A DNA stretch of 64,000 nt from Candidatus Moraniibacteriota bacterium (GTDB lineage Bacteria > Patescibacteriota > Minisyncoccia > Moranbacterales > UBA1568). The translations under genes were made by a program, and so were the position numbers. Shown here piece after piece: positions 29,002 to 49,476 of the stretch (position 1 is its first letter; each line of letters begins with the position of its first letter). The stretch spans positions 193,222 to 257,221 of the forward strand of contig CP064994.1 in NCBI GenBank assembly GCA_016699975.1, read 5' to 3'. The notes under the pieces were generated by a model. It was not told the origin of the DNA and did not search any database. It saw only the letters and a list, made by a program, of their open reading frames with translations.

Positions 29002-29115
29002 CATCATAGGACTCTGAGCATATTCTGCCCAAAGTTTTGTTTTATCAGAGCCAAAACCGAGAGGTTCTAGGTGAAACCGTCTTTTTATTTTATATAAGCC
29101 ACTAATAATAAAAAA

Positions 29116-29640
29116 ATGGAAAATGCGACAACAGATGTTAGCCAAAATGTTTCAAGTCAAAGCGTAGCAATCCCAGAAAAAAAGCACGATATGGCTTGGG
29201 TAATTTCTCAAATTATTCTTAGGGAGTTCATAGTTGGATTTCCGATAATTATGGTGTTGATGATAATTGCAGGAATTATAGTTGTTAGCAGTGGCGTAAA
29301 CATTGAAGCACTATTGCAAAGAGCACAAGCAGAACCAGAATTTGCAAAACAATTAGCTATGCTAAATCAGCTTGTTAGTGCAGTATTATTTCCAATTTCC
29401 TATATCGGAACACGCTGGGGATGTAAATATGTGACAAAAGCACTTATATTGAGGAAAAGGATTTTGGAAAAATAGGATATTGGATCGGACTTATTCCAAT
29501 TGCTTTTGGATTGATAAGTGGAAGTGTTATGTTAGGGGCAGCTTTCTTTGGTATTTTTGTTACACCAAAATTAGTAAAGAAGTGGCTTGCAAAGTTTAGT
29601 GCTGAAAATAATTCATTAGACCTGTTGCCTTTTAAGCAAC
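29116..29640 (+). CDS. Hypothetical multi-TM membrane protein; frame changed near 29465 and its 3' end runs into the IS terminal repeat
   Basis: ORF 29116..29475, then an alternative frame IGYWIGLIPIAFGLISGSVMLGAAFFGIFVTPK... that continues into the IS left inverted repeat. Confidence 0.45.
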
Positions 29641-30652
29641 ACTGTTAAAATTGAGTTATCCTAAAAACAAACATAAAACCATGATAAACATCCAGCGAGT
29701 ATTGAAGAATCCAAGGGCAATGTCAGCATTAACAGGTGCAACAGCAACGGAATTCAAGCAGCTTCTTCCTGATTTTATCAAAACGTGGGAAAGTTCAAAA
29801 CGTTATCAACACAGACGAGATGCTGGAGTCAGAAAAATCGGAGCAGGCAGAAAGGGTTTTCTAAAATCCATGGAAACAAAACTGTTCTACGTCCTTTTTT
29901 ACTACAAATGTTATCCAACCTATGACCTTCTCAGTATCATTTATGATTGCAATCGCTCCAATGCTTGCAGACGACAATTTGAGTTAGGAAATCTTTTGGA
30001 AAAAACCTTGGGCAGAAAGCGAGTTCTTCCAGAAAGGAAAATGAGAAAACTCGAAGAGTTTTTCAAAGCTTTTCCGGAGGCGCGAGAAGTCTTCATTGAT
30101 GGCACGGAACGTCCCATTCAGCGTTCAAAAGACAAGGAAAAACAGGAAGAAAACTACTCCGGCAAGAAAAAGAAACATACCCGAAAAAACATTGTTATTA
30201 CTGACAAGAAAAAACGAATTGGTTTTTTGAGTAAGACTGAAGGAGGAAAAAATCATGATTTTCCGATGCTCAAAAGATACGCTTCTCCTGACAATATGCC
30301 AACCAAAATCAAGAAACATTTGGATTTGGGATTCAAGGGGTTTCAAAATCAGTTTCCTGGTCACAAAGTATCAATGCCCAAGAGAAAACCAAGGACAAAA
30401 GAACTCACTGAATTTTCCAAAGAACAAAACAAGAAAAAATCTGCAATCAGAGTCTTGGTTGAAAATGCTCTTGCCGGTGTTAAAAGACTCAGAATTGTTA
30501 CGGATGTATTTCGCAACAAGAAAAAGAATTTCGACGATCAAGCAATGTTCATTTCCTGCGGACTCTGGAATTACCATTTATCAGTAAAATGGTAATTCCA
30601 GAATCTTCATGGAGATTCTTGTTAATTTAAGTTGCTATTAAGCAACAGGTCT
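29618..30652 (+). mobile_element. IS5/Harbinger-like insertion sequence (DDE_Tnp_4 transposase) with 24-bp imperfect terminal inverted repeats and a 3-bp ATT direct repeat
   Basis: Left end agacctgttgccttttaagcaac vs right end gttgctattaagcaacaggtct; flanked by att on both sides. Confidence 0.75.
29651..30595 (+). CDS. DDE_Tnp_4-family transposase
   Basis: N-terminal HTH_Tnp_4-like LTGATATEFKQLL...GAGRKGFL; catalytic YSGKKKKHTRKNIVITDKKKRIGFLSKTEGGKNHDFPMLK. Confidence 0.8.
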   Translation: MSYPKNKHKTMINIQRVLKNPRAMSALTGATATEFKQLLPDFIKTWESSKRYQHRRDAGVRKIGAGRKGFLKSMETKLFYVLFYYKCYPTYDLLSIIYDCNRSNACRRQFELGNLLEKTLGRKRVLPERKMRKLEEFFKAFPEAREVFIDGTERPIQRSKDKEKQEENYSGKKKKHTRKNIVITDKKKRIGFLSKTEGGKNHDFPMLKRYASPDNMPTKIKKHLDLGFKGFQNQFPGHKVSMPKRKPRTKELTEFSKEQNKKKSAIRVLVENALAGVKRLRIVTDVFRNKKKNFDDQAMFISCGLWNYHLSVKW

Positions 30653-30711
30653 ATTAGATAAAATCCCACTTAGGGATTTTATTGTGTCCAAAAATTTACT
30701 AAAATATAAAT

Positions 30712-31172
30712 ATGTGGAATAAAGTAACAAAATTTATACCAGAAAATTTTAGAATTGTTGCCACATTGGTTACATTTTCAATTATAACCTTCATAAATGA
30801 GGGGTCTGGGGGTAGTTTTTCAATGAATAAGTTTACAGATAGTGGATTTGCGGGTTTTTCTTTGGAAAATGCTCTCAAAGGAACATTGATGACATACCTC
30901 TATCTTTTTGAAGGGTTATCTATTCTTGGAGTGCTTATTGTTATTATGTGGCGCGTGATCGCTGGATATTGGATTTGGAATATGAAGGATCACACAAAAA
31001 TGTCAGAAAACAAAGCGAAGAAGAGTTTACAGAAAACAATACTAAGGCATTCAATTACATTATAAAACTCGCATTGATTGCGGGGTTGGTAACTGGCGTA
31101 TTTGTAATTATAATCGGATTTGCACTCAAGTTCTATATTCATTATAAAACTGGCAGTTGGTGGTTAGAATAA
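30712..31172 (+). CDS. Hypothetical small membrane protein, frame changed near 30950
   Basis: ORFs 30712..31065 and 30948..31172 overlap; both halves are hydrophobic. Confidence 0.4.
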
Positions 31173-31410
31173 ATTATTGAAATGCAAAAGTGTTCAAAAA
31201 AAGTTCTAAATCTGCCCTGAATTTGAGCGATTTCAGTTCTGAATATAGCAAATTGGCGGAGCCAAACTCGGATTAGGAGCAGCGAAATCTGCTTCTTTTC
31301 CTTTTACAGGGTCTTGAGCTGCATGTTCGAGTGTACCTATTTTTTTCAATTTCAATGAACATGAAAGCGAGACCGTCTTTGATGATGGAGAACGGTTCTT
31401 TCGCGTTTGT

Positions 31411-31475
31411 CCACTAGGCGGAGCAGCCAAAACAAGGCTTGAGCGGGCCTTGTTTTTGTATATCCTCTGTTGGAG
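31411..31475 (+). repeat. Hairpin repeat family, copy A (truncated, abutting IS30 copy 2)
   Basis: ccactaggcGGAGCAGccAAAACAAGGCttgagcggGCCTTGTTTTtgtatatcctctgttggag; about 90% identical to copy C. Confidence 0.8.
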
Positions 31476-32561
31476 GGTGAGTTCAAGAATTTAATGCCCC
31501 TTTTCCAGTACCCTGGCAAAAACTTCATTCGGCGTCAAATAGTTAAGCGCTTTCCTCGGTCGATTGTTGAGTTTGTCCTGAACTGACCGAACTTCTTTTT
31601 GGGAAATTTTATCAAACGGGCATTTCTTCGGAAAATACTCTCGTAACAATCCATTCAAGTTTTCCACACCTCCTTTCTGCCAACTTTTGTAGGTATCGCA
31701 GAAGTAGGAAGGAAGAGAAAGTTTTGTTTCGTTTCTCCGTGCAAAACATTCTCCGTTCCATTATCTCTCGTAATACTTCTCCTCAATTGCTGCGGAAGCC
31801 GAGAGAAATGTCCCTGTATCGCTCGTTCGCTTTCGACCGCTGTTTTGTTTGGAACTTTCTTTAATCGGCATAGCTTCATTTTTCGCTCGTACTGTACCGA
31901 GAGTACTGACTTCTGTTTTGAGAATATCACGGAATCGGTTTCCCAGTCTCCAAAGTGTGTACGCTTGGTAATGACCGCGGGTCTTTCGTGAATGGGTATT
32001 CTATCCGGAATCGTCTCTTTTCGCGGTTTTCGAGAGAACTTTGGTCGTCTCCGCTTCTGTTTTCGTCGCAGATGTTTGTACCATCCGCCGACCCTTCCTT
32101 CTCCGCGGTAAATGTAATCATAGATGGATTCGTAACTTATCGAGGTATCCGTACACGAGGAAAGATTTTTCGGAGGAGATGTTTTCAACCGGCCGGCTAT
32201 CTGCTCCGGTGAATGTCCCTTCAGGAGTTCGCTTTCGACAAACTTTTTCAGTTTCTCGTTTTGCCATTTTCCAGTTTTCTTTTGTTGGTATTTTTCTTTC
32301 GTCTTTCCGCATACGCTTCAGCTCGGATGGCAACATAGGGAAGGTGCGGACTCGAATTTCTTCGTATCTCTCGCTTGATGACGGAGTAATCTCTTCCAAG
32401 TTTCTCCGCGATCCATGTTTTCTTTTTCTTCATGCGGAGAAAGCTTTCGATTCGCTCTCGTTCAAAGAAGGTTATGGACGTTCCTTTTGGCATATTCATA
32501 GCGTTTTTGGAAGTTAACGCCGGAGTATACCAGAAAAGGGGCTTCGGGGTTTGAATTCACC
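31476..32561 (-). mobile_element. IS30-family insertion sequence, copy 2 (inverted, 1086 bp); no target duplication; transposase degraded
   Basis: Near-identical to copy 1 with the same terminal repeats; the fragments (ORFs 32248..32499, 32118..32399, 31655..32188) carry HTH MPKGTSITFFERERIESF...REIRRN and the core ...GDWETDSVIF...SITRDNGTEN; flanks gag / gtg do not match. Confidence 0.85.
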
Positions 32562-33614
32562 GTGATTTATTTACCATCATTTAAAAAGCCTGTAACAATC
32601 AAGCCAGTAGCTCTAAATGAACTTGGAGAACAGCTAAGTATTTCTATTCCAGATGTGAGGGTGCCAAAGATTGAATTAGAAGAAAAAGAGCAAGAAAAGA
32701 TTGTAAACGATACGATTAAGTTTGTGTTTGGTACCTCACCTAAAGATGCTCTATCTAAAAGTGAATTTGAGAAGAGGTGTTTGATTTTTGCAAGGCATAT
32801 CGGAGAAAAATGGGAAGAGATACTGACAAGTTCTCATCATCCTATCGAGGAAAAACTTCCTGAAGTTATAGCAAAGATGGAAGCGGAGAGTTTTCGACTA
32901 CTGGTTCTATCTGGAGTTTTAGCGATCTATGGTACCGAGGAGCAAATAAAAGTGTTTGTAGAAACTCTTTCAGAGGTTTTGAAGTTAGCAAAAGGTAAAT
33001 CAGGGATTGTTGCAATTATTGCGGTTCCTGAGGTTATTGTTCTTTTGACGATATATATATTTACCTTGCTCGCATTAGCAACTCGAGACTTTAGTCGGTT
33101 AAAGGTATTTACCAATACCAGAGTCTATGGTTGGGTATACGATGGTGAGCCACCAAAAATCCTAGCCCTGAATCACGTTCACTACACCAGCGCATTAACC
33201 GGACATGCCGATAAAGTTGCGGACTTTGTTAGATCTAGACTTGAATCTATGAAGTGGTTAAAGTCTCTACACCCAAGACTGGAGAATATTCAAGATGTCC
33301 AAATACAAGCCAGTTTTCTTCTTAGTATGCTTATGCGCCACAATGATATTAGGACTTGGCCTGATTTTGGAAGATGGTACGCTCAAAGAATCACCTCTAT
33401 CGTAGAAAGGATAAAATATGATGATCAATATGTTAAACAAATAGCCAGTCTTTTTGATGTTCAATCCAAGGATTTGAGGTTGAAATTTTCGGAGTATCTT
33501 ACCGACTTTCGAAAGGCTGGGATGGCTCAGTATCACTGGGAATCCATCAGTCAGAAAGCACTCTTTACACCCGAGGAACTTACAAAGATGAAAGAGGAGA
33601 ACTTAGGAGATTAA
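32562..33614 (+). CDS. Hypothetical protein (350 aa, AT-rich), probably 5'-truncated by IS30 copy 2
   Basis: The ORF opens exactly at the IS boundary; first ATG is about 107 codons in; internal TM segment; no recognised domain. Confidence 0.45.
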   Translation: MIYLPSFKKPVTIKPVALNELGEQLSISIPDVRVPKIELEEKEQEKIVNDTIKFVFGTSPKDALSKSEFEKRCLIFARHIGEKWEEILTSSHHPIEEKLPEVIAKMEAESFRLLVLSGVLAIYGTEEQIKVFVETLSEVLKLAKGKSGIVAIIAVPEVIVLLTIYIFTLLALATRDFSRLKVFTNTRVYGWVYDGEPPKILALNHVHYTSALTGHADKVADFVRSRLESMKWLKSLHPRLENIQDVQIQASFLLSMLMRHNDIRTWPDFGRWYAQRITSIVERIKYDDQYVKQIASLFDVQSKDLRLKFSEYLTDFRKAGMAQYHWESISQKALFTPEELTKMKEENLGD

Positions 33615-33909
33615 GACATAATTTATGTGGTCTTTGGATTTTACTTTTGGAAAAACGAGCTAAAATTGAAACAAAAAATCGGTTAGGTAGGCGTCTAAAC
33701 TAGTCTAATTTCATGGACAACGCTTTCGTTTTTGGAGATGGAGGGGTAATTACTGGAGAAGATTGTTGGGCGAGTGAGAGGAAATAGTGAGGGATTTTAA
33801 CCGCGAGGATTTTGGGGCGACCCTTGCATAATATCAAGCTCCATGTTATCGTCCGCTGTCTGGTTCCTTGACAATTCATGTTCAACAATTCACCTATCGG
33901 AGGTGCAAA

Positions 33910-34741
33910 GTGGCTACTGTAGAAAAGAGTATTCGTCCCATGATATTCAGTGCTCCGGCTATTGGGGAGCGTGAAACGGTTTTTCCCTTGGCTCGAGAGC
34001 TGGTTCGTATTCAAGTTCCGGAAGCACTGATCAAAGATATCCTCGAAGCCTGCGATGGTCAGAGAACTTTGGATATGGTGCTGGAATTGCTTGAATCTAA
34101 GTGGGATCGCGATACATTAGAGAGCTTCTTGCGGCACTTGCACGAGAAAGGGGTGCTGTATGATAGCTCAAACTTGAGCGGTTTCGTTTGGCCGTTCGTT
34201 TCAAATCCGAGTCACTTCTCAAAAGCGGTGACTGATCTTCAGGTAGCTGAGATGGTTGAGCGAGCGTGCTTGAGGCAACGGAATCTTCCATCAAATATGT
34301 TTTTCACGGTGAAGGAGTATTATCCTTTCCAACGATTGGTTTCCAATCGGAAATCGGAACGATCCTTTTCAGGGAAAGTGATTAGCATGGAGCGTGTTGT
34401 TCAAATGCTGTGGGCGGGATATGGAGTTATTGCCGAATCTCAATCAGGAGTGGGCTTTGACCGTCATACCGTTCCGTCGGCGGGAGCATTGTATCCGTGG
34501 CGTGGTGATTGTGAATGGGTCGTTTAGTGTAGGGGAAGAGAAATATGGCAACAGGTCGCTCCTCTATGTTCCGCTTGAAGCGGGGCATGTCGCGCAGAAC
34601 ATTCTTTTGGAAGCGACAGAGTGCGGTGTTGCGACGGTGGAGATTGGCGGATTTCTCGAAGAGCCGATGCGAGACGCATTACGATTGCCGACGGAATTCG
34701 TTCCGTTGACCACCGTGGTGTTTGGCGATTCTGCCGGTGGT
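33910..34741 (+). CDS. SagB-type dehydrogenase (McbC-like nitroreductase-fold, TOMM 'B' protein), frame changed near 34508-34515
   Basis: SERSFSGKVIS...TVPSAGALYP hallmark motif, followed in the next frame by VVIVNGSFSVGEEKYGNRSLLYVPLEAGHVAQNILLEA...GGFLEEP; GGAGG RBS then GTG at 33910. Confidence 0.8.
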
Positions 34742-35970
34742 GGGGATCATGGACATCACCTGCCATGCGGATTCGAAGTTTGGTGGGCATATCCAAAAGC
34801 AAATGGATACGTGTTGCCGTTCAATCTCGTGTTTGCTCGATTGGCAAAAGCTTCCGGTGGAAGCGAAGAGTGGTCATGCGGGCGTTCTTCCGATCCTTTC
34901 GTGGCGTATGAAAAAGCGACTGCGGAAGTGCGGGAGTGGGCGGCATGCAGTCTTCCGCATAACCTTGTGAAGTCGAATATCGGATCGCTTGCGAGTGCGG
35001 TAGCGCCGGACAGCATAGTGGCGTTTCATCCCGATCAGTACGCTTCGCCGAGTTTTCCGTTCTTTCCCTTGAACAAGAAGGGGTCTACGAATGGAAGGAA
35101 GCCACAGACGTGGTAACGTGTGAAATACATTTCATTCTGGCTGACTGTATCTACTTCCCCTACTATCCGGAGTATCCGCGCTGTGCAAGTGCGAATTCTT
35201 CCGGAGCGGCTGCGTATCCCACAAGGATTGGCGCAGTTCGGCGCGGGGTGTTGGAGTTGATCGAGCGAGATGCCTTCATGATCGTGTGGCTCAACCGTTT
35301 GGTGATGCCAACGATCGCTGGTGGTAGTTTTCCGGATGATGTTCGGTGTCGTATTCGCAACTTGGAAGAAGCGGGTTTTGAAGTGATCATCAAGGATGCG
35401 ACACTTGATTTGGCTCCGGTTGTGTTGGTATTCGCGCAGAGCGAAGACTTGCATTACACAACGTGCTCCGCTTGCTGTTCTTTCAATGTTGACAGGGCGC
35501 TGAATCATGCTTTACTGGAGGTCGAAGCGGCGGTGTATTGTCGTTTGGCATTCGGCTCTTCAGAGCCGATGCTTCCCGAAGATGTGCGGATGACGCAGGA
35601 TCACGGGAAGCTGTACGAGCAAGAAGCTTTTTTCCGACAAGCGGATTTTCTGAAAGAGTCTCGGCTCTTGAAAGACTTGAGTGAAGTCGGCGAGGGCGCT
35701 TGCTTTCACTGGGAAATGCTGTTGGTGCGTATCGCGGAACAAGGAAGGAACGTTCTGGTGGTCGATCTTGAAAATCCGCATGTGGACGGTATTCAGTCAA
35801 ATCTGTTCATAGTGAAAACTTTTGTGACAGGATTGGTGCCGATAAGCTTCGGGTACAGAGAAGAGCCGTGCGGGATGCAAAGAATCTACGAAGTCCCTGT
35901 GACTTTTGGATTCCGTTCCGACCCGATTCGTTACGACGAACTCAACAGGTTCCCGCATCTTTACACATAG
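34742..35970 (+). CDS. YcaO cyclodehydratase domain protein (TOMM 'D' protein), frame changed near 35045-35075; contiguous with the SagB reading frame with no intervening stop
   Basis: N-part SCGRSSDPFVAYEKATAEVREWAACS; core SSGAAAYPTRIGAVRRGVLELIERDAFMIVWLNRL (YcaO ExxERD motif). Confidence 0.8.
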
Positions 35971-35993
35971 CTTGCGAAAGGGGGTGATGATCC

Positions 35994-36158
35994 ATGCAAG
36001 CAGGAAAAGCCGCGAAGGGGCAATCCTTCGAATGGTGCGTCACGGTTGAACCGCGGCGTTCGGGTAGAGGGCACGAAGCACTCTCGAGCAAAGGGAGCAG
36101 CAGCTCCGGTTCGTGTCAGCGTTCCAACAGCTGTCGGGCAAGCGCGATTCAACGCTAA
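35994..36158 (+). CDS. Candidate TOMM/RiPP precursor peptide (54 aa): MQAGKAAKGQSFEWCVTVEPRRSGRGHEALSSKGSSSSGSCQRSNSCRASAIQR
   Basis: Not in the ORF track because it is under 60 aa; RBS aaggggg 9 nt upstream; Ser/Cys/Gly-rich C-terminal core; immediately downstream of YcaO and followed by two strong hairpins. Confidence 0.5.
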   Translation: MQAGKAAKGQSFEWCVTVEPRRSGRGHEALSSKGSSSSGSCQRSNSCRASAIQR

Positions 36159-36174
36159 TCGCAACGGTTCGGCA

Positions 36175-36232
36175 GACTAAAGCGCTTTAGTCTCAACAAG
36201 GGGTCTTGGTCATGATGATCACGACCCCCCTT
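36175..36232. terminator. Tandem hairpins (20-bp perfect palindrome agactaaagcgctttagtct, then ggggtc...gacccc + T-run) between the convergent precursor and peptidase genes
   Basis: Read directly from the sequence. Confidence 0.7.
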
Positions 36233-37078
36233 TCATTTCCCAAATTCTGATTTTTCGTAAATTTTTTTTGGTGTGAGCTGGACGATATCGTTCCATGATG
36301 TGTCAGGATGTCGCTTTCGATACGCTTCAACCATTTGGTAGCCGATCGCATAGCCTGCCCAGAGAGGGTATTCTTTTCCTTCCAAGAAGACAGGATAGTA
36401 CATCTTTGTATTGCGAAACCGCTTCTTGAATTTTTCATACCACACGAGTGCTTCTTTGAACGGGAGGGCTTGCGAGGGCATATGTGCCTTCACGCCGAAG
36501 AGAAAGGAAACAAAACTTTCCGCTACTCCCTCAAAGACGAGGTCGTCCAAAAGATTTTTTCTCTCGTAGTGGTTATCCATTACCGTGTGCATGAACTCGT
36601 GACAGATCGTTTCGGTGAGCGCTTCTTTCCATCGCTCAGTTTCCTGCGGTGAAACATACAAGAGCAGGGTATTTTTGTAAGGAGTATAGCCCGAGACGCC
36701 ACCCATTTTGTCTTTGACGAAGGTGCTAAAGGTTGGGAAAAGAAATATATTGGTTGGTGAGGTGGAAACGTTTTTGTGACAAAGTTGGAGAGCTTCTTTT
36801 ATGGTGCGTAGCAATTCTGATTCCGAAATACTGAACGCTTGATGTTGAGTATTGGCATTCTCGAAGTCGGGAATATTATACGTGAGATTATCGTGGAGGT
36901 GTTTCTTTTTGGTGAATCCGGCGTAACCGATTGCTTTTGAGTAGGGAACTTCTTTGACGAAATTTCCAATGAGAGTCTCGTTATCGAACGCGGGATCGTA
37001 TTTTGTGAAAAGTTGAAGCGTTCCAATGTTACCCGATTTTCCCTTTTTCTGTATGTCAGTAATGGTGTGTGCTTGCAT
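36233..37078 (-). CDS. Putative zinc metallopeptidase (HExxH; DUF2268-like)
   Basis: TICHEFMHTV motif; 281 aa; AT-rich. Confidence 0.6.
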   Translation of the reverse strand: MQAHTITDIQKKGKSGNIGTLQLFTKYDPAFDNETLIGNFVKEVPYSKAIGYAGFTKKKHLHDNLTYNIPDFENANTQHQAFSISESELLRTIKEALQLCHKNVSTSPTNIFLFPTFSTFVKDKMGGVSGYTPYKNTLLLYVSPQETERWKEALTETICHEFMHTVMDNHYERKNLLDDLVFEGVAESFVSFLFGVKAHMPSQALPFKEALVWYEKFKKRFRNTKMYYPVFLEGKEYPLWAGYAIGYQMVEAYRKRHPDTSWNDIVQLTPKKIYEKSEFGK

Positions 37079-37182
37079 AGGGTTTTGGCAATAGATGGTT
37101 TATCCTTATAATTTCTTGAGGAAAGACTAGCACTTTTTCGGAGAAGTGTATATCGAAGAAGTCTTCTTCGGAACACATTTTT

Positions 37183-40695: not shown

Positions 40696-40730
40696 TTTTT
40701 GTTTTGATAATTTTTTAATATAAGCGATTT

Positions 40731-40979: not shown

Positions 40980-40984
40980 TTTGT

Positions 40985-41170: not shown

Positions 41171-44100
41171 ACTCGAATCTTTCGAAAACATGTATAAGTA
41201 TCCTTTCCATGAGGTAGTTTTCTTGATTTTTTTGGCTACCTTCTTTGCTAAGCCAATCAGGTGGATTTTGTAAGAACTTTTTCATTAGTTCTGATTCTGG
41301 AAGAAATTCTTGAACATTTATTTTAAAGATATCAATTTTAAGTGATTCACTGTCCGTAGCCTCTAAGGGAGAGTATTGAGTTAAGATCCCCAGCCTATTT
41401 TTATTGAGAACAAGAATATAGGAATCTCTTTTATTATCGTAAAGCTCGTAAACGGGTATATCCTTATCTTTAACCTTATAAAAGCCGTTTATTTCCTTAG
41501 GAAGACTGCCTTCAGCGATGTTTAAACGCCATTTAGGAGTGTATTTTTCATTCTGGTTTGCTTCAAAGAAGGATCTCCAGCTGGCATTATTTACTGCAAT
41601 AATAATTGCCTCACCAGTGGTGGAAATATCCGCTATTTTTTGATCCAAGTCAGCAGCACTTATGACTGCGGAGCGATCCTTAATTTTCTTTAACAGATCC
41701 GTGTTTTCTCCTATTACCATGTTCCTGCCAAACTCAAATCCTTCTTCCATTCCTAAAACATGAACGTGCCAGGATACGGAATCATCGAAGAAACCGGCTT
41801 TATCAAATAAAGTGTTTACTCCTAGACTTTTGAGATCACCTGAATATGGTTCGTTGCTCTTATCTTGAAACAGACTGTAGTGGCGGAGAATACTTCGAAG
41901 TTGATCATTATCGTAAAAATCTTTCACTACGCTTTTTTTAAAAATCGCTACCTTTTTCGGGGAAATTCTTAATCTTCTTTTTTTATCTATTTCTTCATTT
42001 TCTTGGCTTTCTTTAGCACGTACTAGAAGATCCTTGAAGCTATCTACTTTCTCTAATGCTTTCCCATCCAGTAAAAAGCTCCAGTTACTAGGATTGGCTT
42101 TCATGTCTTCTAGAGTACCCAATAAACTTCTTGTCCCTTCAGCAAGGTATGCCAAATCTCTACTGTGAGGCAGGTTAATGCCCGCTATTTCATCGGGAGT
42201 TTTCTCCTTTAAGATTTCTAATGAATATACTGCATAAAGCCTTTCAAGTTTTGAAAGAATATCAATCGTATGTGCTTCACCTTCTTCTTGTCCTTCCATT
42301 TCCCAGTTATCCCAGCCCCAGAAGCTTTCTACTGCAAAGTCATGAACAACGGAGAAGAGCTTAGTAAAATCATTAATTTCGCTAGGAAGTTTTCTTTTTA
42401 CTTCATCATAAAATTCTTTCACCTTTTCGTTATCTTTGTCTTGTTCTAACTCGTATAAAATCCAGCTAGCTACACCAAAGAACATCTCCTTTCTCTTTCC
42501 ATCAAGATAATCGTAAAGTTTCTCATCCTCATCAGAATCAGATCGGCCAGAATCCCGAATATCTTTGAATAACTTTGAGGTAACAAGCAGAAACTTTTGA
42601 AAGTTCAAAGTATCTCTATTGCTAAATGAAGCTTTTAATAAGCTTTGAAAAATCTTCAATATTTCCTCTGCAAAAAGTTTTATCTCTTCCTTTGAGTAGT
42701 TCTTATCTTCGAGCTTTTCTTCCAAAGGATGTCTTGATAGGTCATTGAGATATCTCCATATCCTGTCGAAAATGAAGGCTGCTCTCGTCTCATCATTTTT
42801 TCTTTTGGCCTCTATAGCAATGTGGTAAAAGCGTAGGGGATAATATGCAAACTCTTGAAATATTAGGTGGTCTTTATGGTCAATCGCCTCTTGAAGAAGC
42901 CGGATGGGTAAGTACATTACGTAGCGATTAATATCCTTACTTACAGAACTTAACCCATTTTCAATAACTTCGCTTATGTCTTTTGAGATCCAGGAAACTG
43001 ACTTAAAGCCCCCAAACGCTATTTCAAACCTCATATCGCTAGCTTGCTTTGCAGAAAATCCTCCTCCGTGCTGTTCCAAATAAGAGTAAAACTCCTTGAT
43101 TAACTCGATGTAGAAATCGGTGATTTCTCCCAACTCCTTAGTCTTCTGTTGCTGAATAAATTCATAACAACGAAGTTTAATCTCAGAAATCTCATTTTGG
43201 ATCTCATCATAGTCAGTGCTATTTCGTTTGATCACGAACAGCTTATTGGCCATTTCTGAGACTTTTGCTTTTTCTGACGGCGATTTAATTAAATCCTTGT
43301 GTATCCATAGGAGATTTCCTTCGCCTTTCTCAAGATATGATAAGTATCGTGGAACAATCCAGAAATAGGGATCTCTTCCTTTGTATTCCTCATCAGTGTT
43401 TGAAACCTCATCTGAGTTTTTGAGAAGAGCGCTGTAGTCTTCAGGTAATCTTTTCTGAAATCTTAAAAGAAAACTATTTAGCTTATTTAGTTTAAAATCG
43501 TAGAATGTACCAGTTTTAAGTGTTTTTATTGGAATAAATCTATTTTTATTCACAGGAGAAAAAGGGCTGACTTCAACTACCTTTTTGAACCTTTTAAGTT
43601 TTTTGTTGAGGACGCCATCTCCTATTAACTGGGTTACTTCGTTATCTAATAAATTAAGAAACCGGATCTTAATAGCATGTAAAAACTCCTTCCTTTCTTT
43701 TTTAAAGCTAAAATTATTCGAAAATAGGTTTAAAGTCTGAAATAGAGAGTAGATTGTTCCCGCAGCTATAAGCACCAAAGGAATAACCCCGAAGAAATTA
43801 ATGTTTCCCCACCAAATGTAGTACAGGAAGTAAAGAACCTCAGCTATTATTAAAAGTGGGAAAAATTTACTCCTTTTCAATAAAATTCTTCCCCTGTAAG
43901 GATTCTCGTTAGCTATCTCTTGGGCAATGAAAAATGCCAATCCAATTAAAACTGCGCCTATTCCTGCATGGATCGTGATTAAGTTTTGAAAATGGTTTTC
44001 TTCTCGTAATATCTCGGAGAGGTTGCTGAATTTGTTTTCGATCCAATAAGATAGATTTTCACAGCATATATTATTGAACTGATGAAGAATTCCATTAATC

Positions 44101-44369
44101 CAATTGGAATGGGAGAGCACAAAGAAAAAGGCCAATACCAAGACAACTGCAAGAATTTCCCACCCTGATAACCATAAAAGTGTAAGCTTTGAGTTTATAA
44201 GTTCCTTATGATCTTTTCTTAACTTTTTCTCTTCTTTGACTAAGCTAAGTAAGGAAGGTTCTCTTTCCCAAGAAAAGACTTTTAGGATCGCTTTTAAAAC
44301 TTGTACTGTCTTCAATTCTTCTTTCATTGTCGTGTAGTCAAACAAGGGGTAATCAGGGCATTTTCTCAA
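41118..44369 (-). CDS. Large hypothetical protein (1083 aa) with an N-terminal 4-5 TM region and a long soluble domain
   Basis: Uninterrupted 3.25-kb ORF in the AT-rich island; no motif I can assign. Confidence 0.7.
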   Translation of the reverse strand: MRKCPDYPLFDYTTMKEELKTVQVLKAILKVFSWEREPSLLSLVKEEKKLRKDHKELINSKLTLLWLSGWEILAVVLVLAFFFVLSHSNWINGILHQFNNICCENLSYWIENKFSNLSEILREENHFQNLITIHAGIGAVLIGLAFFIAQEIANENPYRGRILLKRSKFFPLLIIAEVLYFLYYIWWGNINFFGVIPLVLIAAGTIYSLFQTLNLFSNNFSFKKERKEFLHAIKIRFLNLLDNEVTQLIGDGVLNKKLKRFKKVVEVSPFSPVNKNRFIPIKTLKTGTFYDFKLNKLNSFLLRFQKRLPEDYSALLKNSDEVSNTDEEYKGRDPYFWIVPRYLSYLEKGEGNLLWIHKDLIKSPSEKAKVSEMANKLFVIKRNSTDYDEIQNEISEIKLRCYEFIQQQKTKELGEITDFYIELIKEFYSYLEQHGGGFSAKQASDMRFEIAFGGFKSVSWISKDISEVIENGLSSVSKDINRYVMYLPIRLLQEAIDHKDHLIFQEFAYYPLRFYHIAIEAKRKNDETRAAFIFDRIWRYLNDLSRHPLEEKLEDKNYSKEEIKLFAEEILKIFQSLLKASFSNRDTLNFQKFLLVTSKLFKDIRDSGRSDSDEDEKLYDYLDGKRKEMFFGVASWILYELEQDKDNEKVKEFYDEVKRKLPSEINDFTKLFSVVHDFAVESFWGWDNWEMEGQEEGEAHTIDILSKLERLYAVYSLEILKEKTPDEIAGINLPHSRDLAYLAEGTRSLLGTLEDMKANPSNWSFLLDGKALEKVDSFKDLLVRAKESQENEEIDKKRRLRISPKKVAIFKKSVVKDFYDNDQLRSILRHYSLFQDKSNEPYSGDLKSLGVNTLFDKAGFFDDSVSWHVHVLGMEEGFEFGRNMVIGENTDLLKKIKDRSAVISAADLDQKIADISTTGEAIIIAVNNASWRSFFEANQNEKYTPKWRLNIAEGSLPKEINGFYKVKDKDIPVYELYDNKRDSYILVLNKNRLGILTQYSPLEATDSESLKIDIFKINVQEFLPESELMKKFLQNPPDWLSKEGSQKNQENYLMERILIHVFERFEFNLQEDFEGFLIKVREN

Positions 44370-44455
44370 AATGAGGATCTATTTACAAGGTACACCCTAA
44401 TTAGGTGAAAATACCATTAACTCTGGGGAGACAGAGGCTATTTTCCTTTTCAGAC

Positions 44456-44548
44456 AGGTTCGAACTTCCTCCAGTCCGCGGAGCAGGCAAAACGAGGCTG
44501 AACAGCGCCTTGTTTTTTGTTACCCCTTGTCGGAGTTCGAACCTCTTA
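44456..44548 (+). repeat. Hairpin repeat family, copy B
   Basis: GGTTCGAACttcctccagtccgcGGAGCAGgcAAAACgAGGCtgaacagcGCCTTGTTTTttgttaccccttgtcggaGTTCGAACctc. Confidence 0.8.
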
Positions 44549-44635
44549 ATTAAATTGTATGATACACAATAATAAATTATTGACAAACGATAAGTAATAG
44601 AATAGGATAAAGATGTAAATATTAGAGGATTTTTT

Positions 44636-45121
44636 ATGAAAAAAAGTTCAATACTATTTCTCCAGGGGGTGATTATACTAATTGGTATCGTCAGTTTCGT
44701 TCTGATGCTTTGGGAGCCTCATCTGGAGGGAAGGAACGTAAATGCTACGCTATTTGAAATCTATTTTAATGATCCTTTCTTAGCCTATGCATATGCTGCC
44801 TCAATTGCTTTTTTTGTAGCACTTTATCAAGCATTCAAATTATTAGGATATGCAGATAAAAACAAAATATTTTCCCAATCTGCTGTGAAGTCTTTAAGAA
44901 ATATAAAATATTGCGCTTTGATCCTGGTTGCATTTGTTATCGGAGCCGAAGGTTACTTATTTCTTGTTGTACGAAAAGTGGAAGAAGATATTGCAGGGGG
45001 CGTTATGATGGGTCTGGTTATGGTCTTTGTCTCTGTAGTTGTAGCCACGGCAGCAGCGGTATTTGAAAAACTTCTGCAGAGTGCTGTCGATATGAAGTCA
45101 GAGAATGAATTAACTATATAG
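44636..45121 (+). CDS. DUF2975-like membrane protein
   Basis: 4 TM helices; lies upstream of and overlaps a YozG-like HTH gene, the conserved DUF2975-HTH pairing. Confidence 0.55.
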   Translation: MKKSSILFLQGVIILIGIVSFVLMLWEPHLEGRNVNATLFEIYFNDPFLAYAYAASIAFFVALYQAFKLLGYADKNKIFSQSAVKSLRNIKYCALILVAFVIGAEGYLFLVVRKVEEDIAGGVMMGLVMVFVSVVVATAAAVFEKLLQSAVDMKSENELTI

Positions 45122-45126
45122 CGTGT

Positions 45127-45330
45127 ATGTCTATCGTAATCAACATTGACGTAATGCTCGCTAGAAGAAAAATGAGTGTAACTGAGCTTGCAGAAAGAGT
45201 GGGGATAACCATCGCCAATATTTCTGTGTTGAAAAATGGCAAGGCTCGTGCTATTCGATTCTCGACACTGGAAGCAATTTGCGCTGCTTTAGACTGTCAG
45301 CCTGGAGATATTTTGGAGTACAAGAAATAA
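45127..45330 (+). CDS. XRE-family (Cro/C1-type, YozG-like) HTH transcriptional regulator
   Basis: MSVTELAERVGITIANISVLKNGKARAIRFSTLEAICAALDCQPGDIL. Confidence 0.8.
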   Translation: MSIVINIDVMLARRKMSVTELAERVGITIANISVLKNGKARAIRFSTLEAICAALDCQPGDILEYKK

Positions 45331-45391
45331 TTGATCGATAAAGCAGAAAGATGATTAAGATTTACGAAGAAAGAGGAATTAAGCAGCTTCA

Positions 45392-45516
45392 GAGGTTCGA
45401 ACACTTTCCATTTATCCCTCCACCCCTCTATAGGACAAGGTTCGAACTTCATCCAACAGGTGGAGCAGCTAAAACAAGGCTTGAGCAGGCCTTGTTTTTG
45501 TATATCCTCTATTGGA
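45392..45516 (+). repeat. Hairpin repeat family, copy C (two GGTTCGAAC motifs plus the hairpin)
   Basis: aGGTTCGAACac...cctccacccctctataggacaaGGTTCGAACttcatccaacaggtGGAGCAGctAAAACAAGGCttgagcagGCCTTGTTTTtgtatatcctctattggag. Confidence 0.8.
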
Positions 45517-45593
45517 GTTTGGATTTGGTATAGACAAAACTTTTAAATATGCGATTATTATAAATCGTTCTTTTCCATCCGTACCTATATTTA

Positions 45594-46229
45594 TTGATAT
45601 TGGGACGGGACTTTCCAGTTCATTTCAACAGAGAGGAATCAATAGTGAAAGAACTCGCTTTCGGATTGAATATCTTCGGCGCCGTTCTTGGTTCGCTTGC
45701 TGCTTGCCTGTACGCCCTACGTGTCTGGCAGAAGAAGGAGCGAGCCAACCTCGCCACTTGGTCAATCGTTCTCGTCCTTGATGTGGCTGGGCTCTACCTG
45801 GCCTACGCTACTGGCAATAAGGAACCTTACATCCAGGCTGGCTGGTGTATCGCGGTGCTACTCATCTTCATTGCGACATGGAAGCGTAAGGGTGACTGGC
45901 AGTGGACGAAAACCGAGTCTACGGTGCTCGCCATTTGTGTGCTGTCGGTCGTTGTTTGGCTCACAAGTCAGGCTGTTCTTATTTCCTTGCTCGGCTATTT
46001 AACAGCCGCTTTTCTCTCGGCTTGGCCGCAGGCCAAGGATTACCTCCGGCATCCGGAGGTGGCACGGAAGAGTGCCTGGGTGTGGCAAGTCAGCATCGTC
46101 GCTATCTTGTTTCCACTTATTGCCAAGCTCGTCGAGGGTAAGTACGATGTCGAACACACGCTGATCTACTGTGCGCTGATCGGTCTCAATGTGATCATGG
46201 CTGCTCTCTGCATGCGCCGACCTCCGTAG
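45594..46229 (+). CDS. Hypothetical polytopic membrane protein (higher GC); the true start may be the GTG near 45654
   Basis: Multiple hydrophobic helices. Confidence 0.55.
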   Translation: MILGRDFPVHFNREESIVKELAFGLNIFGAVLGSLAACLYALRVWQKKERANLATWSIVLVLDVAGLYLAYATGNKEPYIQAGWCIAVLLIFIATWKRKGDWQWTKTESTVLAICVLSVVVWLTSQAVLISLLGYLTAAFLSAWPQAKDYLRHPEVARKSAWVWQVSIVAILFPLIAKLVEGKYDVEHTLIYCALIGLNVIMAALCMRRPP

Positions 46230-46337
46230 CGGTTCGAAGGATAGCAACGGAAGTTTTTTGCGCCATGAGGCTGCTTATCTTAACGGAAGGCAGCCTTTTT
46301 CTTTTCTTAAACATCAGGACAGGTTTTTATAAAACAG

Positions 46338-46430
46338 TTTCTCACTTCCTTCAACAGTCGGAGCTAAGAAAATAGAAGCTCTTATAAGCCTCTATTTTTG
46401 TTACCCCGGACTGGTGTTCGAATCTCTTAT
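46338..46430 (+). repeat. Hairpin repeat family, copy D (diverged)
   Basis: cttccttcaacagtcGGAGCtaagAAAAtAgAaGCtcttataaGCcTCTaTTTTtgttaccccggactggtGTTCGAAtctc. Confidence 0.65.
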
Positions 46431-46431
46431 G

Positions 46432-47028
46432 TCAAAGTTTATTTCCGTATTTCTCAATAAAGTATTTGACAGGATAGACCAGCTCTTTTTCTAGCGCTTC
46501 TTCCAGAGTGAGCCATACTGGTTTGACTCCTTCATCGTTTATTTTTATCTCGCCGATATTTTCAACTTTGGTGGTGTAGAGATGCCACTTGTGATTATCA
46601 GCACCGCGACGACACTCATCGCCGATGACATCTTCTTCCGAAAAGAGTCTTACACTATGAGCCTCAATACCTGCTTCTTCCTGCAATTCTCGCTTTGCAG
46701 CTGTTGCTGCATCTTCTCCAGTATCTAGATGCCCTGCTGGAATAGCGAAAGCGAAGGGGTAGATAGTGCGTTCAAAAAACAGAGCTTTGCCGTCTTCATT
46801 GAACACAAAAACACCCACGCTTTCGTGCCAGTATTCTTTTGTTGATTCGTCTACCCACCAGACTGTCTTGGGGTCAATGACAATGAGACGAGGTGATTTA
46901 TCGCCACAGCTATCGCAGAGGTAAAAAGTCTTCTCCCCTTCGAAAACCCGATTGATGCTTTCGGAGTGACACTTTGAGCAGTATTGATGGAACTGGTTAT
47001 CCGTTGGCAGAGGGAAGGCAATCTTCAT
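46432..47028 (-). CDS. NUDIX hydrolase with an N-terminal zinc-ribbon
   Basis: CSKCHS...CDSCGD; Nudix box GHLDTGEDAATAAKRELQEEAGIE. Confidence 0.8.
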   Translation of the reverse strand: MKIAFPLPTDNQFHQYCSKCHSESINRVFEGEKTFYLCDSCGDKSPRLIVIDPKTVWWVDESTKEYWHESVGVFVFNEDGKALFFERTIYPFAFAIPAGHLDTGEDAATAAKRELQEEAGIEAHSVRLFSEEDVIGDECRRGADNHKWHLYTTKVENIGEIKINDEGVKPVWLTLEEALEKELVYPVKYFIEKYGNKL

Positions 47029-47134
47029 AAAGCAGTAAAGTTAAGTCTTGTCTTTCTAGTAAACTCGTGTTACAGTATTTTGTCAAAGTTACGGTGATTT
47101 TGACGAGTTACTTCACATTACGAGGAGAGCAGAG

Positions 47135-48289
47135 ATGAAGGTTTTTCAGACAGACTGTCGTGAGTGGGAGGGATACAAACCCTGCCGCAAGCAGAAGGTT
47201 GGATTGACAGAAGGGTGCCAAGAATGTCGGTTCTACACCCCGATACAGGAGAATATCCTGGTTATCGAAGCAGGAGGACTGGGGAGTGCCCTCCGAACGA
47301 GCGTTGTTACAAAGGAACTCAAGAGGAGAAGCCCGAACAGCCGCATCCAGTGGCTCACCAATGAACAAGTCGTGGGGCTTGTCAGTGGTAATGTTCCGAG
47401 TGTGGACAGGGTTTATCCCACGACGTGGGAAAGTTTGGTGGTCTTGGGTGGCCAGGCGTTCACCCAAATCATCAACTTTGAGTCCAATCCGCTCTATCTG
47501 TCGTTCGTGAACGAACTGCTTCTCAAGAAGAGGGGATTCGCAATGAACGAACTGGGCAACCTGGTTCCGGCATCGCGTTCCGCAGAGGAGTTTCTCTGGT
47601 TGCAGACCAACGACCGGTTTCGTCGGCGTGAAAACAAGAAGTCGATGCAGCAAATCCTCCTGGAAACGGCGGGACTCCAGTGGGAAGAACAGCCTTACGA
47701 CCTGATGATGAAGCCAGAGGACGACGAGTGGGCGCGGGCATTCCTTACCCAGCTTGGCATTACCGAGACAGGCATTCTGGTTGGCCTCAATATCGGCAGC
47801 AGTTTGCGGCATAGCGCCAAAAGGTGGCCACCGGAACGCTTTCACGAACTGGCCAAGTTGTGCCAAGCGTCTCACCCAGAGTGGAAACTGCTCGTCTTGG
47901 CGGGGCCGGAAGACACGGATACTTACCAGGCAATCGCCAACCTCAACCAGCGTGAGCCGATGGATAATTTGGTGTTTACCGGCCATAACCACTCGATCAG
48001 CCAGTTCATCTCTTTGGTGAGCTGCATCCCGCTGGTGGTATCTGCCGATACATTCGGCCTGCACGTCGCGCTTGGTTTGGGCAAGAAGGTTATTTCGCTC
48101 TGGGGGCCGCAACCGGAGAACGAAACATATGGTTACGGAAGGGAGAGCAGGCTGAGTCTGGGACTCGAATGCGCGCCTTGTTTTGCGGGGAAGCCAGAGA
48201 GGTGCACGAATCCGAATCCGCTTCAGTGTATGCGGGGAATCAGTGCTTTGACGGTGTATCAAACTTTGGAGCGGGAGCTTTCGCAATGA
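47135..48289 (+). CDS. Glycosyltransferase family 9 (ADP-heptose:LPS heptosyltransferase-like) with an N-terminal Cys cluster
   Basis: NILVIEAGGLGSALRTSVVTKELKRRSPNSRIQWLTN...LGKKVISLWGPQ... is the GT9 fold signature. Confidence 0.7.
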   Translation: MKVFQTDCREWEGYKPCRKQKVGLTEGCQECRFYTPIQENILVIEAGGLGSALRTSVVTKELKRRSPNSRIQWLTNEQVVGLVSGNVPSVDRVYPTTWESLVVLGGQAFTQIINFESNPLYLSFVNELLLKKRGFAMNELGNLVPASRSAEEFLWLQTNDRFRRRENKKSMQQILLETAGLQWEEQPYDLMMKPEDDEWARAFLTQLGITETGILVGLNIGSSLRHSAKRWPPERFHELAKLCQASHPEWKLLVLAGPEDTDTYQAIANLNQREPMDNLVFTGHNHSISQFISLVSCIPLVVSADTFGLHVALGLGKKVISLWGPQPENETYGYGRESRLSLGLECAPCFAGKPERCTNPNPLQCMRGISALTVYQTLERELSQ

Positions 48290-48508
48290 TGGAACTCGCC
48301 CCTTGTCTCGGAGCTGCTATGCGGTTACCGAGACTTTTCTTTTTCAGAAGTGAAGTAGTGAATAGTGGGGTGGGGTAAACTCTACGCACTTTTTTCCATA
48401 AACTTCTTTAGTCCGAATTAGTAGAGCTTTTATGCTTTATCCTTCTGTCCCAGGTTCTACTAATTTAGTTAGTGTTCAGTAGGCGGAATTAAAACAAAAG
48501 ACAATCAA

Positions 48509-48548
48509 GTCAGACACCACCGCATTTGCGGTGGTGTCTGACTTTTTA
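48509..48548 (+). terminator. Strong rho-independent terminator
   Basis: gtcagacaccaccgc-attt-gcggtggtgtctgac followed by ttttt. Confidence 0.8.
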
Positions 48549-49476
48549 GCTGTTATTTATTATTAAATAAGCTCTAGACGAGTACTTTAAGAATTCAGAC
48601 ACCGCCGAACGATTCCTTTCAACTCTGCTTCAGAGAGTTTGATCTCCTTTCCGTACTGCTATTCGCATTCTTTGAGATGGAGTTCAAAGTTCATTCAAAG
48701 TTCAATGGAGTGAAAGTCAATTCTAAATCTATACCAAATCCATACCAAGGAATGCGAGTGCGATATGGGAAGAATGTTGTGTTGATTGATTATAGAGCTG
48801 AAAAGATTACGAAACACTAATTGAATGGTTCATCATAGGTATTTAGTCAAGAATCTTGATAATTAAAAGGTAACGAGGGGATTTCCTTAAATTCGAAGTC
48901 CTAAAAATATCATTTGGAGTTTGCCACTTCTCCTTAAAAAGTGGCTTTTTCTTTTTTACTTTACCCCAGTTAATTTCTCTAAAATACCTTTCCAATGCAG
49001 AGTTTCAAATTTGTCTATCATTGGAGACATTTACAAAAATTGAATTCAACAGGGTTTTCGTTTTTTGTTAGATGGTTTTAAGAAGTTTGAGTGTTCCCAA
49101 AACAGGCCTTACATAGAGAAGTTCAAATGCCAATCATGATTTACAGAAGAAATAAGAACTATCTTGGATTGCTTTGAAGTATTGCTGGGGGATGATACGC
49201 ATATTTTCATTTAGGAATAAGGGCATGAGAATGACTTTTTGATAATAAGAACTCCTCTTTCGATGGCACTTGTTTCGGAAGATAAACTTCTTTCCCTGCA
49301 GAAGACTCATGGAATATTTCGTAGAGCGTTTTTTGTGTGCTTGAGAAGACCTTCGAATCTGTATAGACAAAATAGAGTAAGTATTGTACTTTTTACTGTC
49401 GGTTGAAATGACTGATCAGTGTCGGGATGCCCGCACTGCTTTCCTGAAATCTTGAAATTGAAAGAGGAGTGGAGCA

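Follow-up and report, generated by a model that had tools for sequence, protein, structure and literature searches.

The question that this locus raises is how some 19.5 kb of compositionally mosaic DNA came to lie directly behind a tRNA-Asn(GTT) gene. The host is known from a metagenome-assembled genome (MAG) of Candidatus Moraniibacteriota, within the candidate phyla radiation (CPR/Patescibacteria), and its RpoD is only 73% identical to that of the nearest species-level genome in a comparison with GTDB; the locus was analysed within a stretch of 64,000 nucleotides (nt) of contig CP064994.1, to which we refer as the window and whose coordinates are used throughout. An earlier inspection of the letters, here called the sequence-only reading, had proposed several acquisitions at one hotspot. 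The comparison with relatives, the alignment of the repeated junctions and the mapping of a recombinase family across other genomes lead to a more specific answer, namely, that the 19.5 kb most plausibly represents a tandem array, with at least seven units that were inserted separately and are joined at repeated tRNA-like sites. We consider it likely that this array was built via repeated site-specific integration at the tRNA-Asn 3' end by a family of large serine recombinases (LSRs) that is common in the CPR.

Content of the tRNA-Asn locus in the window and in relatives

The sharp drop in composition behind the tRNA that had been noted in the sequence-only reading is evident, with the tRNA ending at 29002 instead of 29001: GC falls from 0.489 (1-29002) to 0.388 (29003-33700), rises to 0.492 (33701-37100), falls again to 0.380 (37101-45560) and returns to 0.495 (45561-48556). 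The windowed GC and tetranucleotide profile that had been proposed as a check bears out the mosaic, the two AT-rich blocks standing at about twice the tetranucleotide distance to the backbone. The islets of higher GC described there do exist, at 0.492 and 0.495, and simply have the GC of the backbone.

The content behind the tRNA differs between strains. L001 is 99.1% identical to the window over 25420-29002 and unrelated to it from the last tRNA base onward, where it carries a 527-amino-acid (aa) LSR that is 24% identical to the window LSR. L106 starts inside tRNA-Asn (with a compensatory T-stem change) and continues with a 562-aa LSR (35% identical) and Gp49, HTH, ClpP and Terminase_2 (small terminase) genes; this 7-kb element with phage-like genes precedes the same DUF2975-HTH genes that are found at 44.6-45.3 kb of the window. 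Two relatives, one of them a near-identical strain, hence have different elements at the same tRNA-Asn, which bears out the proposed hotspot; the same gene content in synteny, which would have spoken against it, is not present in relatives, since these two hold different DNA at tRNA-Asn. Apart from L044, in which the tRNA-Asn is unoccupied, and L010, which ends at the tRNA, the search for an empty site among GTDB genomes was uninformative, the closest genome being without synteny beyond dnaG-rpoD.

With the crossovers placed after 29002, 31262, 31424, 37288, 44484, 45466, 46364 and approximately 48489, the array reads as follows (strand given where assigned).

28930-29002, plus strand: tRNA-Asn(GTT), called by ARAGORN and Rfam, with the GC drop immediately 3' of it
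28980-29002, plus strand: tRNA-Asn 3' arm GGTTCGAATCCTGCCGCCGGAGC, a half-site of attB type whose terminal GGAGC contains or adjoins the crossover
29003-31262, plus strand: unit 1, with small membrane-protein open reading frames (ORFs) at 29116-29475 and 30712-31065
31235-31262, plus strand: closing arm of unit 1, AGTTCTGAATATAGCAAATTGGCGGAGC, 28 nt
31263-31424, minus strand: unit 2, a relic of 162 nt from the 3' end of another LSR gene, closing at the arm of site C
31388-31490, plus strand: junction site C, with GGAGC at 31420-31424 and its right arm cut by an IS30-like element at 31476
31425-37288: unit 3, with a 350-aa ORF (32562-33614), SagB-type dehydrogenase/YcaO sequences (33868-35970) and a protease-like DUF2268 gene (36233-37078, minus strand)
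37261-37288: closing arm of unit 3, GGTTCGGAAGCTGTCCCGCCAAGCGAGC, inside the LSR reading frame
37289-44484: unit 4, the recombinase element (7.2 kb, GC 0.38), the sole unit with an intact LSR
37183-38865, minus strand: LSR of 560 aa, whose last 35 codons lie past the crossover, in unit 3
37295-37358: opening of unit 4 (hairpin, T-run and GAGGTTCGAACC), within the 3' end of the LSR gene
41118-44369, minus strand: cargo protein of unit 4, 1083 aa (1069 aa from the annotated start; 100% identical to IPL87_01160)
44457-44484: closing arm of unit 4, GGTTCGAACTTCCTCCAGTCCGCGGAGC
44485-45466, plus strand: unit 5, with a DUF2975 gene (44636-45121) and a Cro/C1-type HTH gene (45127-45330)
45439-45466, plus strand: closing arm of unit 5, GGTTCGAACTTCATCCAACAGGTGGAGC
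45467-46364, plus strand: unit 6, with a membrane-protein gene (45645-46229); between sites B and D of relative L108, a NUDIX gene takes its place
46365-48489: unit 7, with a NUDIX gene (46432-47028, minus strand) and a GT9 gene (47135-48289, plus strand)
48452-48489: closing arm of unit 7, degenerate (GGAAT for GGAGC, plus an insertion) and the weakest boundary
48507-48544: perfect 18-bp hairpin directly 3' of the last arm

The unit boundaries fall at GGAGC. Unit 5 (44456/44481 to 45466/45501) is found at 97.5-99.2% identity in L106, L107, L108, L109 and L110, its flanks being unrelated or more diverged (GT9 at 88.6% in L108, NUDIX at 82% in L112); the identity starts at GGAGC (44480-44484) or 1-2 bases before it and ends at the next GGAGC (45462-45466), and the 67-aa HTH protein of this unit is unchanged on at least 23 contigs. 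Contigs from other assemblies also have their ends at predicted crossovers: one sample supplied both L002, with its first base at 37285, and L194, with its last at 37289; the GAGC of site A is where L108, L112 and L113 begin, and L010 stops at the ...GGGAGC of its tRNA-Asn. The divergent first 55 nt of L002 were considered as an att junction, a candidate that was rejected because they are still homologous and combine a variant allele with the end of a contig, not being a clean junction in themselves; the positions 37285 and 37289 at which contigs end keep their value as evidence. The DNA of unit 2 is 81% identical to that of L106 at the end next to the tRNA (peptide ...KGKEADFAAPNPS), and since the relic of an LSR 3' end that it contains (31263-31404) is preceded by an arm, it points to an earlier occupant that was displaced from the tRNA. 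At the far end, the right boundary that had been put at about 48.5 kb coincides with the last, degenerate junction, whose arm is homologous to a working arm in L107. Where a strong terminator had been put at 48509-48548, a perfect hairpin lies at 48507-48544, which may represent the original tRNA-Asn terminator or flank.

Independent short-read contigs match the window at 98.9-100% identity, almost without indels, over three stretches (25420-29002, 36136-37289 and 37285-55435).

Junction architecture and the recombinase family

At each junction a tRNA-3'-like arm (GGTTCNAA...GGAGC) leads up to the crossover, past which come a hairpin, its T-run and, farther out, a GTTCGAA box. In a MAFFT alignment of three tRNA junctions (window, L001 and L106) and four internal ones, the seven share the succession (A)GGTTCNAA, spacer, GGAGC, about 10 nt, short hairpin and T-run, followed 50-65 nt past the crossover by a second box, (G)AGTTCGAA, and a 5-nt gap was put, unprompted, in all three tRNA rows. 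The GTTC-to-GAG distance was measured on 29 arms, two of which matched GTTC a second time and were corrected by eye: all 15 tRNA arms and the four pseudo-tRNA arms have 21 nt, and all 10 internal arms have 26 nt. In the LI/A118 serine integrase of Listeria, the motif for the zinc-ribbon domain (ZD) lies 5 bp nearer to the centre in attB than in attP (PMC3783163). Because the offset agrees with this rule, the tRNA arm can be regarded as a B-type and the internal arms as P-type half-sites.

The sequence GGTTCGAAC occurs 8 times, versus 0.74 times expected, and always inside the island. A covariance model of the site, built from 11 junctions, identifies copies at four places of the window, without exception on the plus strand (31388-31490, 44448-44550, 45430-45531 and 46328-46430), and four sites in series on L107. 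Two further junctions, 31235-31262 and 37261-37358 (the latter inside the 3' end of the window LSR), have the same layout with a different sequence. The sites on L107 (1-6478) bound three units, i.e. Fic plus NUDIX, DUF2975-HTH, and 3.6 kb ending in a Band_7 protein; the hairpin of the third site (2745-2879) is different and longer.

The hairpin repeat family described in the sequence-only reading is thereby retained, not as a side feature but as the junctions between the units. The partial repeat of the tRNA 3' end proposed there has to be modified: tRNA-like arms exist, but GTTCGAATC is located at 46416-46424 and not at 46408-46416, and no copy of the tRNA-Asn 3' end of at least 16 nt with at most 3 mismatches is present anywhere in the window. 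An exact direct repeat of the tRNA 3' end for each unit was rejected; found instead are tRNA-like arms in a conserved GGTTCNAA...GGAGC frame. The complementarity between arms is nested, the closing arm of unit 4 pairing best with the opening right arm of unit 7 (-30.1 kcal/mol) and the ends of unit 5 pairing with each other (-26.7 kcal/mol), which is the pattern expected if units 5 and 6 were inserted into an older junction, the number of sites being small (3-4). Pairing of left and right arms in situ was rejected, as RNAalifold backs the apical stem only and pairing across units fits better.

The gene at 37183-38865 had been recognised from the letters as a serine recombinase, and it is one by its Pfam domains (Resolvase 3.7e-18, Recombinase 6.5e-8, Zn_ribbon_recom 4.8e-7), not a tyrosine integrase; it also has a PHROG integrase match (1.5e-64), and R13, S15, S16 and the cysteines are invariant in an alignment of 26 sequences. 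At E<=1e-30 the family comprises 3,710 proteins, and many carry a name of Moranbacteria, Parcubacteria, Nomurabacteria or similar groups. It has a family-wide C-terminal motif, ...RFEP..KEKLEL.YSSSP.LL, and the DNA that encodes this motif comprises distal box, hairpin and crossover. In the best 120 of the 3,710 proteins, the sequence after the LL was compared and assigned to classes by regular expression and by hand. About 41 of these 120 tails are antisense-tRNA peptides, RRQDSNLRPGD plus stop being the exact antisense of the window tRNA-Asn as far as the TAA in the anticodon loop; about 30 are long-arm peptides (e.g. AWRDSFRTFEW... or RLCDNIRT...), which are in a different frame because the arm is 5 nt longer; and about 36 of the proteins stop 1-2 residues past the crossover. 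The window LSR is in the long-arm class, and the conservation of its tail type as protein in 6 other members suggests that only the arm-to-unit, i.e. attP-like, configuration gives the C-terminus its full length.

The association of the family with tRNA genes extends beyond the window. A convergent tRNA lies within 150 nt of the LSR stop in 34 of 80 JGI metagenome loci, the abutting tRNAs being Asn (21), His (5), Trp (3) and Gln (2), with one each of Met, Ser, Tyr and Leu, and the covariance model adds 8 junctions to these loci, each oriented as expected and 7 of them at 4-10 kb from the LSR on the expected side. Among seven loci with LSR relatives in IMG/VR, six have shorter proteins (about 420-440 aa) or are cut by the contig end and show no tRNA, and in the seventh a 39%-identical LSR abuts tRNA-Gln with the same hairpin, T-run and box. 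Distant LSRs abut tRNA-Trp, His, Gln, Met, Ser, Tyr and Leu (L126, L127, L146, L149, L141, L144, L154, L171 and L186), and the target choice therefore appears to have shifted within the family. In L119, L123, L128 and L134 the LSR reads into a tRNA-Asn-like sequence with a mutated anticodon region (e.g. CGTGTAATC); these sequences are not called by ARAGORN, keep the 21-nt spacing and may be displaced tRNA fragments or decoy sites. No candidate directionality factor was identified among the small ORFs at 38924-41170.

Integration model and alternative explanations

In the mechanism that we propose, the tRNA 3' arm GGTTCGAAT...GGAGC would act as the attB-type half-site. The attP would consist of a tRNA-like arm that is 5 nt longer (GGTTCNAAC-N14-GGAGC) and, across the crossover, of the short hairpin, the T-run and the distal GTTCGAA box. 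In LSR-bearing units this second half would be located inside the 3' end of the LSR gene, as a consequence of which the C-terminal tail of the LSR varies with the sequence across the junction. Integration, for which the window LSR is the putative catalyst, would leave the tRNA intact, place the hairpin and T-run of the unit directly behind it, possibly as a replacement terminator, and carry the long arm of the unit to its far end, so that repeated events would produce the order tRNA, unit, arm, unit, arm. Units 5-7 are without a recombinase, and such units (DUF2975-HTH, membrane protein, NUDIX-GT9) would have been moved in trans or be deletion derivatives. Later damage comprises the IS5-like and IS30-like insertions, the decay of the YcaO/dehydrogenase genes and a nonsense mutation in the gene at 39768-40496.

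Several observations weigh against this mechanism. Canonical serine integrases recombine attP with attB only, and growth of the array needs hybrid sites (a tRNA arm, or an arm, plus a unit half), which is unusual for this class of enzymes; hybrid-site recombination has been reported for the Ccr recombinases of the staphylococcal cassette chromosome SCCmec. The crossover is mapped to within GGAGC(A), where the exchanged dinucleotide would have to lie, no clear or convincing symmetric motif is seen on the unit side of it, and the distal GTTCGAA box is, at 50-65 nt, too far away for a 25-bp half-site. A scan for consensus terminators and promoters gave no enrichment over shuffles and recognised only some of the hairpins (those flagged as terminators being 31275-31296, 37295-37326 and 48507-48544). 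Neither an excised circle nor an empty site was observed. All strains seen have units 6 and 7, so that their mobility, like the right boundary, is predicted from the site architecture, and the GT9 and NUDIX genes, which are common to all these strains, are for that reason array members by site architecture only; the last arm (48452-48489), moreover, is degenerate. Finally, 29003-36135 is without support from an independent assembly, and sample ERZ27239125 may contain more than one strain.

Among the alternatives, the one that survives best, and that we nevertheless regard as unlikely, is that the hairpin sites are ordinary terminators or REP-like (repetitive extragenic palindromic) repeats, that the mosaic arose via homologous recombination together with unrelated transfers, and that the LSR moves its own 7-kb element only. 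The hairpins do have the A-tract, stem and T-run of terminators, their stems keep pairing by compensatory changes, a consensus structure in situ is supported for the apical stem only, and units 6 and 7 were never seen absent. Ordinary terminators, however, would not explain why, in each of five contexts, identity breaks off at one and the same 5-nt box to the left and right of unit 5, why this box is also present at the tRNA end and within the LSR reading frame, or why the arm spacing is strictly 26 versus 21 nt, and the shared box is too short for homologous recombination.

It is highly improbable that the locus is an integron-like platform, in which attC-type sites fold into single-stranded hairpins and a tyrosine recombinase swaps the cassettes. 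The sites are indeed imperfect palindromes of about 90-100 nt that start with ...AAC and end with GTT..., and they stand in one orientation and bound swappable genes. Yet no tyrosine recombinase (Phage_integrase match) was found among the ORFs scanned, which cover 24-56 kb, the breakpoint is the GGAGC of the left arm and not the G/TT of the right box, and the outer boxes GGTTCGAAC and GTTCGAACC do not fit RYYYAAC/GTTRRRY. The units, furthermore, contain several genes in both orientations and promoter-like sequences, and the left arm is tRNA-like and continuous with the signature of the serine recombinase family.

We give equally little credence to a single island that was acquired en bloc and then scrambled by insertion sequences (ISs) and deletions, the repeats being leftovers. 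Two IS elements and several pseudogenes are present, and an inverted IS30 pair that flanks the tRNA region could have caused rearrangements; against this, GC alternates between 0.38 and 0.49, unit 5 alone is found in unrelated contexts and is preceded by a different 7-kb element in L106, and a second recombinase relic is present at 31263-31404. An assembly artefact or chimeric contig is scarcely credible, for although the sequence derives from a MAG, the two IS30 copies are distinguished by indels of 1-2 nt that are typical of consensus errors in repeats and 29003-36135 has no second assembly, three stretches are reproduced by independent short-read contigs at 98.9-100% identity with almost no indels.

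Repeated site-specific integration by the LSR family hence remains the reading that we prefer for the array. A broader proposal, that the CPR harbour an as yet undescribed, phylum-wide integration platform in which thousands of LSRs with attP in their own 3' coding end target tRNA 3' ends (chiefly of tRNA-Asn), build SCC- or integron-like arrays and undergo a switch of their tail, is put forward only tentatively, as something that we hold to be possible and not yet probable.

Neighbouring features, known systems and significance

The backbone in front of the array contains, in order, dnaG (24336-26240), rpoD (26355-27815), a NUDIX gene (27855-28349) and a HupF/HypC-like gene (28403-28651) that lies between the latter and tRNA-Asn(GTT); the order rpoD and then tRNA-Asn is also present in three more distant CPR MAGs. 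The position of the HupF/HypC gene (Pfam 1.2e-25) beside NUDIX and downstream of rpoD is odd for a homologue of a hydrogenase-maturation chaperone, and no hydrogenase gene was found among the ORFs scanned. Beyond the last junction, 48557-49476 is an AT-rich stretch (about 0.9 kb, GC 0.36) in which the only ORF of at least 60 aa is one of 78 aa; it is 99.9% conserved in four other assemblies.

Two insertion sequences interrupt the array, both of which had been described in the sequence-only reading, i.e. an IS with an ATT repeat and an inverted, degraded IS30 copy.

29618-30652, plus strand: IS with a DDE_Tnp_4/HTH_Tnp_4 transposase (IS5-like; transposase at 29651-30595), an 11-nt terminal inverted repeat AGACCTGTTGC and ATT on both sides
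31476-32561, minus strand: IS30-like element, frameshifted, HTH_38 (1.7e-7), its ends set by two copies

The first, with its transposase, terminal inverted repeats and target-site duplication, does not belong to IS30 and is a later insertion into unit 1. The second has a twin copy in inverted orientation at 22318-23394 (plus strand), 99.1% identical; both copies are frameshifted by indels of 1-2 nt, which could be consensus errors in repeats, and the frameshifted ORFs give no Pfam match for the DDE part, while the C-terminal motif NRPRKALNYLTPNEVF is one that we take to be IS30-like. The inverted pair brackets tRNA-Gly, dnaG, rpoD and tRNA-Asn, and could invert the 8-kb segment in between.

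The block of membrane-protein, NUDIX and GT9 genes that had been read from the letters is present, as are the DUF2975 and HTH genes. In the case of the module for thiazole/oxazole-modified microcins (TOMM), YcaO and SagB-type genes are indeed present at 33868-35970, but they are broken across three frames overall, so that an intact cluster is not what the locus contains: the YcaO ORF covers profile positions 96-324 only, and the nitroreductase-type dehydrogenase is split over two frames. Since independent contigs show few indels in the unique DNA that they cover, these frameshifts are probably real, and the region is probably a decayed TOMM-type cluster, an unusual cargo for the CPR. The SagB-type dehydrogenase and YcaO apparently formed one long fused frame with two frameshifts. 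The 350-aa ORF that opens unit 3 (32562-33614) weakly resembles (8.9e-9) the C-terminal portion of PDC-S65, a candidate defence protein in PADLOC; apart from generic HTH matches, this is all that PADLOC returned for the region. In the spacer between YcaO and DUF2268 (36090-36190), GGTTCG...TTCCAACAGCTGTCGGGC and a hairpin GACTAAAGCGCTTTAGTC look like a decayed junction in which the spacing is wrong, and unit 3 may therefore represent two older units.

Unit 4 was considered as a prophage and rejected as such, PHROGs matching the integrase only. Its 1083-aa cargo protein, which has no Pfam, PHROG or PADLOC match, possesses an N-terminal membrane region, helical repeats and a domain with an HK97-like fold, and belongs to a family of about 35 clusters; three contexts of homologues are an EcoRI-type methylase plus GmrSD, type I restriction-modification plus Abi, and methylases plus a nuclease. 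In the window, base substitutions at 40123 and 40166 divide the gene at 39768-40496 (minus strand), which is intact with 242 aa in L002; this looks like strain-level pseudogenisation within unit 4.

The closest analogue, judged from general knowledge of such systems, would be the composite islands of the SCCmec type. In SCCmec and other SCC elements of staphylococci, Ccr large serine recombinases act at the 3' end of rlmH/orfX. The likeness lies in the large serine recombinase, the extreme 3' end of a conserved gene that is kept intact, the tandem units that are separated by repeated integration-site sequences and are in part recombinase-less, and the accessory or defence-type cargo. By contrast, the target here would be a tRNA gene instead of a protein gene, there is a single recombinase gene and not a ccrAB pair (orthology to Ccr is not implied, the domains identified being the general ones of LSRs), one half of attP would lie inside the 3' coding end of the recombinase, the sites are hairpins of about 100 nt, and the host belongs to the CPR. 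A regenerated site core at the ends of units is described to permit further integration and thereby tandem arrays (PMC7192596). Islands in tRNA genes (the Islander/TIGER concept) are attributed to tyrosine integrases (PMC4383910); they resemble the array in their hotspot at the tRNA 3' end, their strain-variable occupancy and the regenerated site core, whereas their displaced tRNA fragment is an exact repeat and the arms here are tRNA-like and 5 nt longer, next to a serine and not a tyrosine enzyme.

With the serine integrases of phages (A118/LI, Bxb1, phiC31) the window LSR shares the architecture of Resolvase, Recombinase and zinc-ribbon domains. Known serine integrases mostly target protein-coding genes. 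Shared with them, too, is a distal motif whose distance from the crossover is 5 bp smaller in attB than in attP (PMC3783163); tRNA targets are not mentioned in a large serine integrase survey (PMC10083194). The system described here differs in that attP would overlap the integrase gene, in the extra distal box and hairpin, and in the arrays, which imply hybrid sites. Integron arrays are similar in having gene units, one orientation of the sites, borders that are imperfect palindromes and swapping between genomes, and dissimilar in that here no IntI is found among the ORFs at 24-56 kb, the crossover has another position, the units contain several genes with promoter-like sequences, and the arms are tRNA-like. 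In the myxophage Mx8 (intP/attP) and in SSV1-type elements, a tyrosine integrase has attP inside its own gene. As in Mx8, integration would alter the 3' reading frame of the integrase, with a C-terminus that differs between the integrated and free state, albeit that here a serine recombinase is concerned and that a tail of about 33 aa would be replaced by RRQDSNLRPGD (11 residues) next to the tRNA. The array differs from established tandem arrays in enzyme class, in its non-identical tRNA-like arms, in the attP half within the recombinase gene and in the near-unchanged recombinase-less units.

With genomes of about 1 Mb, CPR bacteria have been described as carrying genomic islands, in an article the main text of which names no integrase, recombinase or tRNA target (PMC12455944), and within the incomplete coverage of our literature search, which does not prove novelty, no description was found that links CPR bacteria with serine recombinases or tRNA integration. 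The array and its recombinase family offer a testable mechanism for the gain of accessory genes in the CPR, in which the enzyme family, the target (the 3' end of tRNA-Asn) and the grammar of the site are all defined. They would extend the targets of serine integrases to tRNA genes on a large scale, and provide, as a natural collection, hundreds of attB/attP half-site pairs in line with the 5-bp rule that was derived from one crystal structure. The antisense-tRNA tails of the LSRs let att sites be called from the protein sequence alone, and compact serine integrases with a universally conserved target could serve the genetics of the CPR, for which tools are scarce. If the phylum-wide platform exists, recombinase-less gene units would be exchanged between genomes at the GGAGC crossover, and integration would swap the tail of the LSR between about 33 aa in the free or internal state and 11 tRNA-encoded residues, which could constitute a built-in directionality switch.

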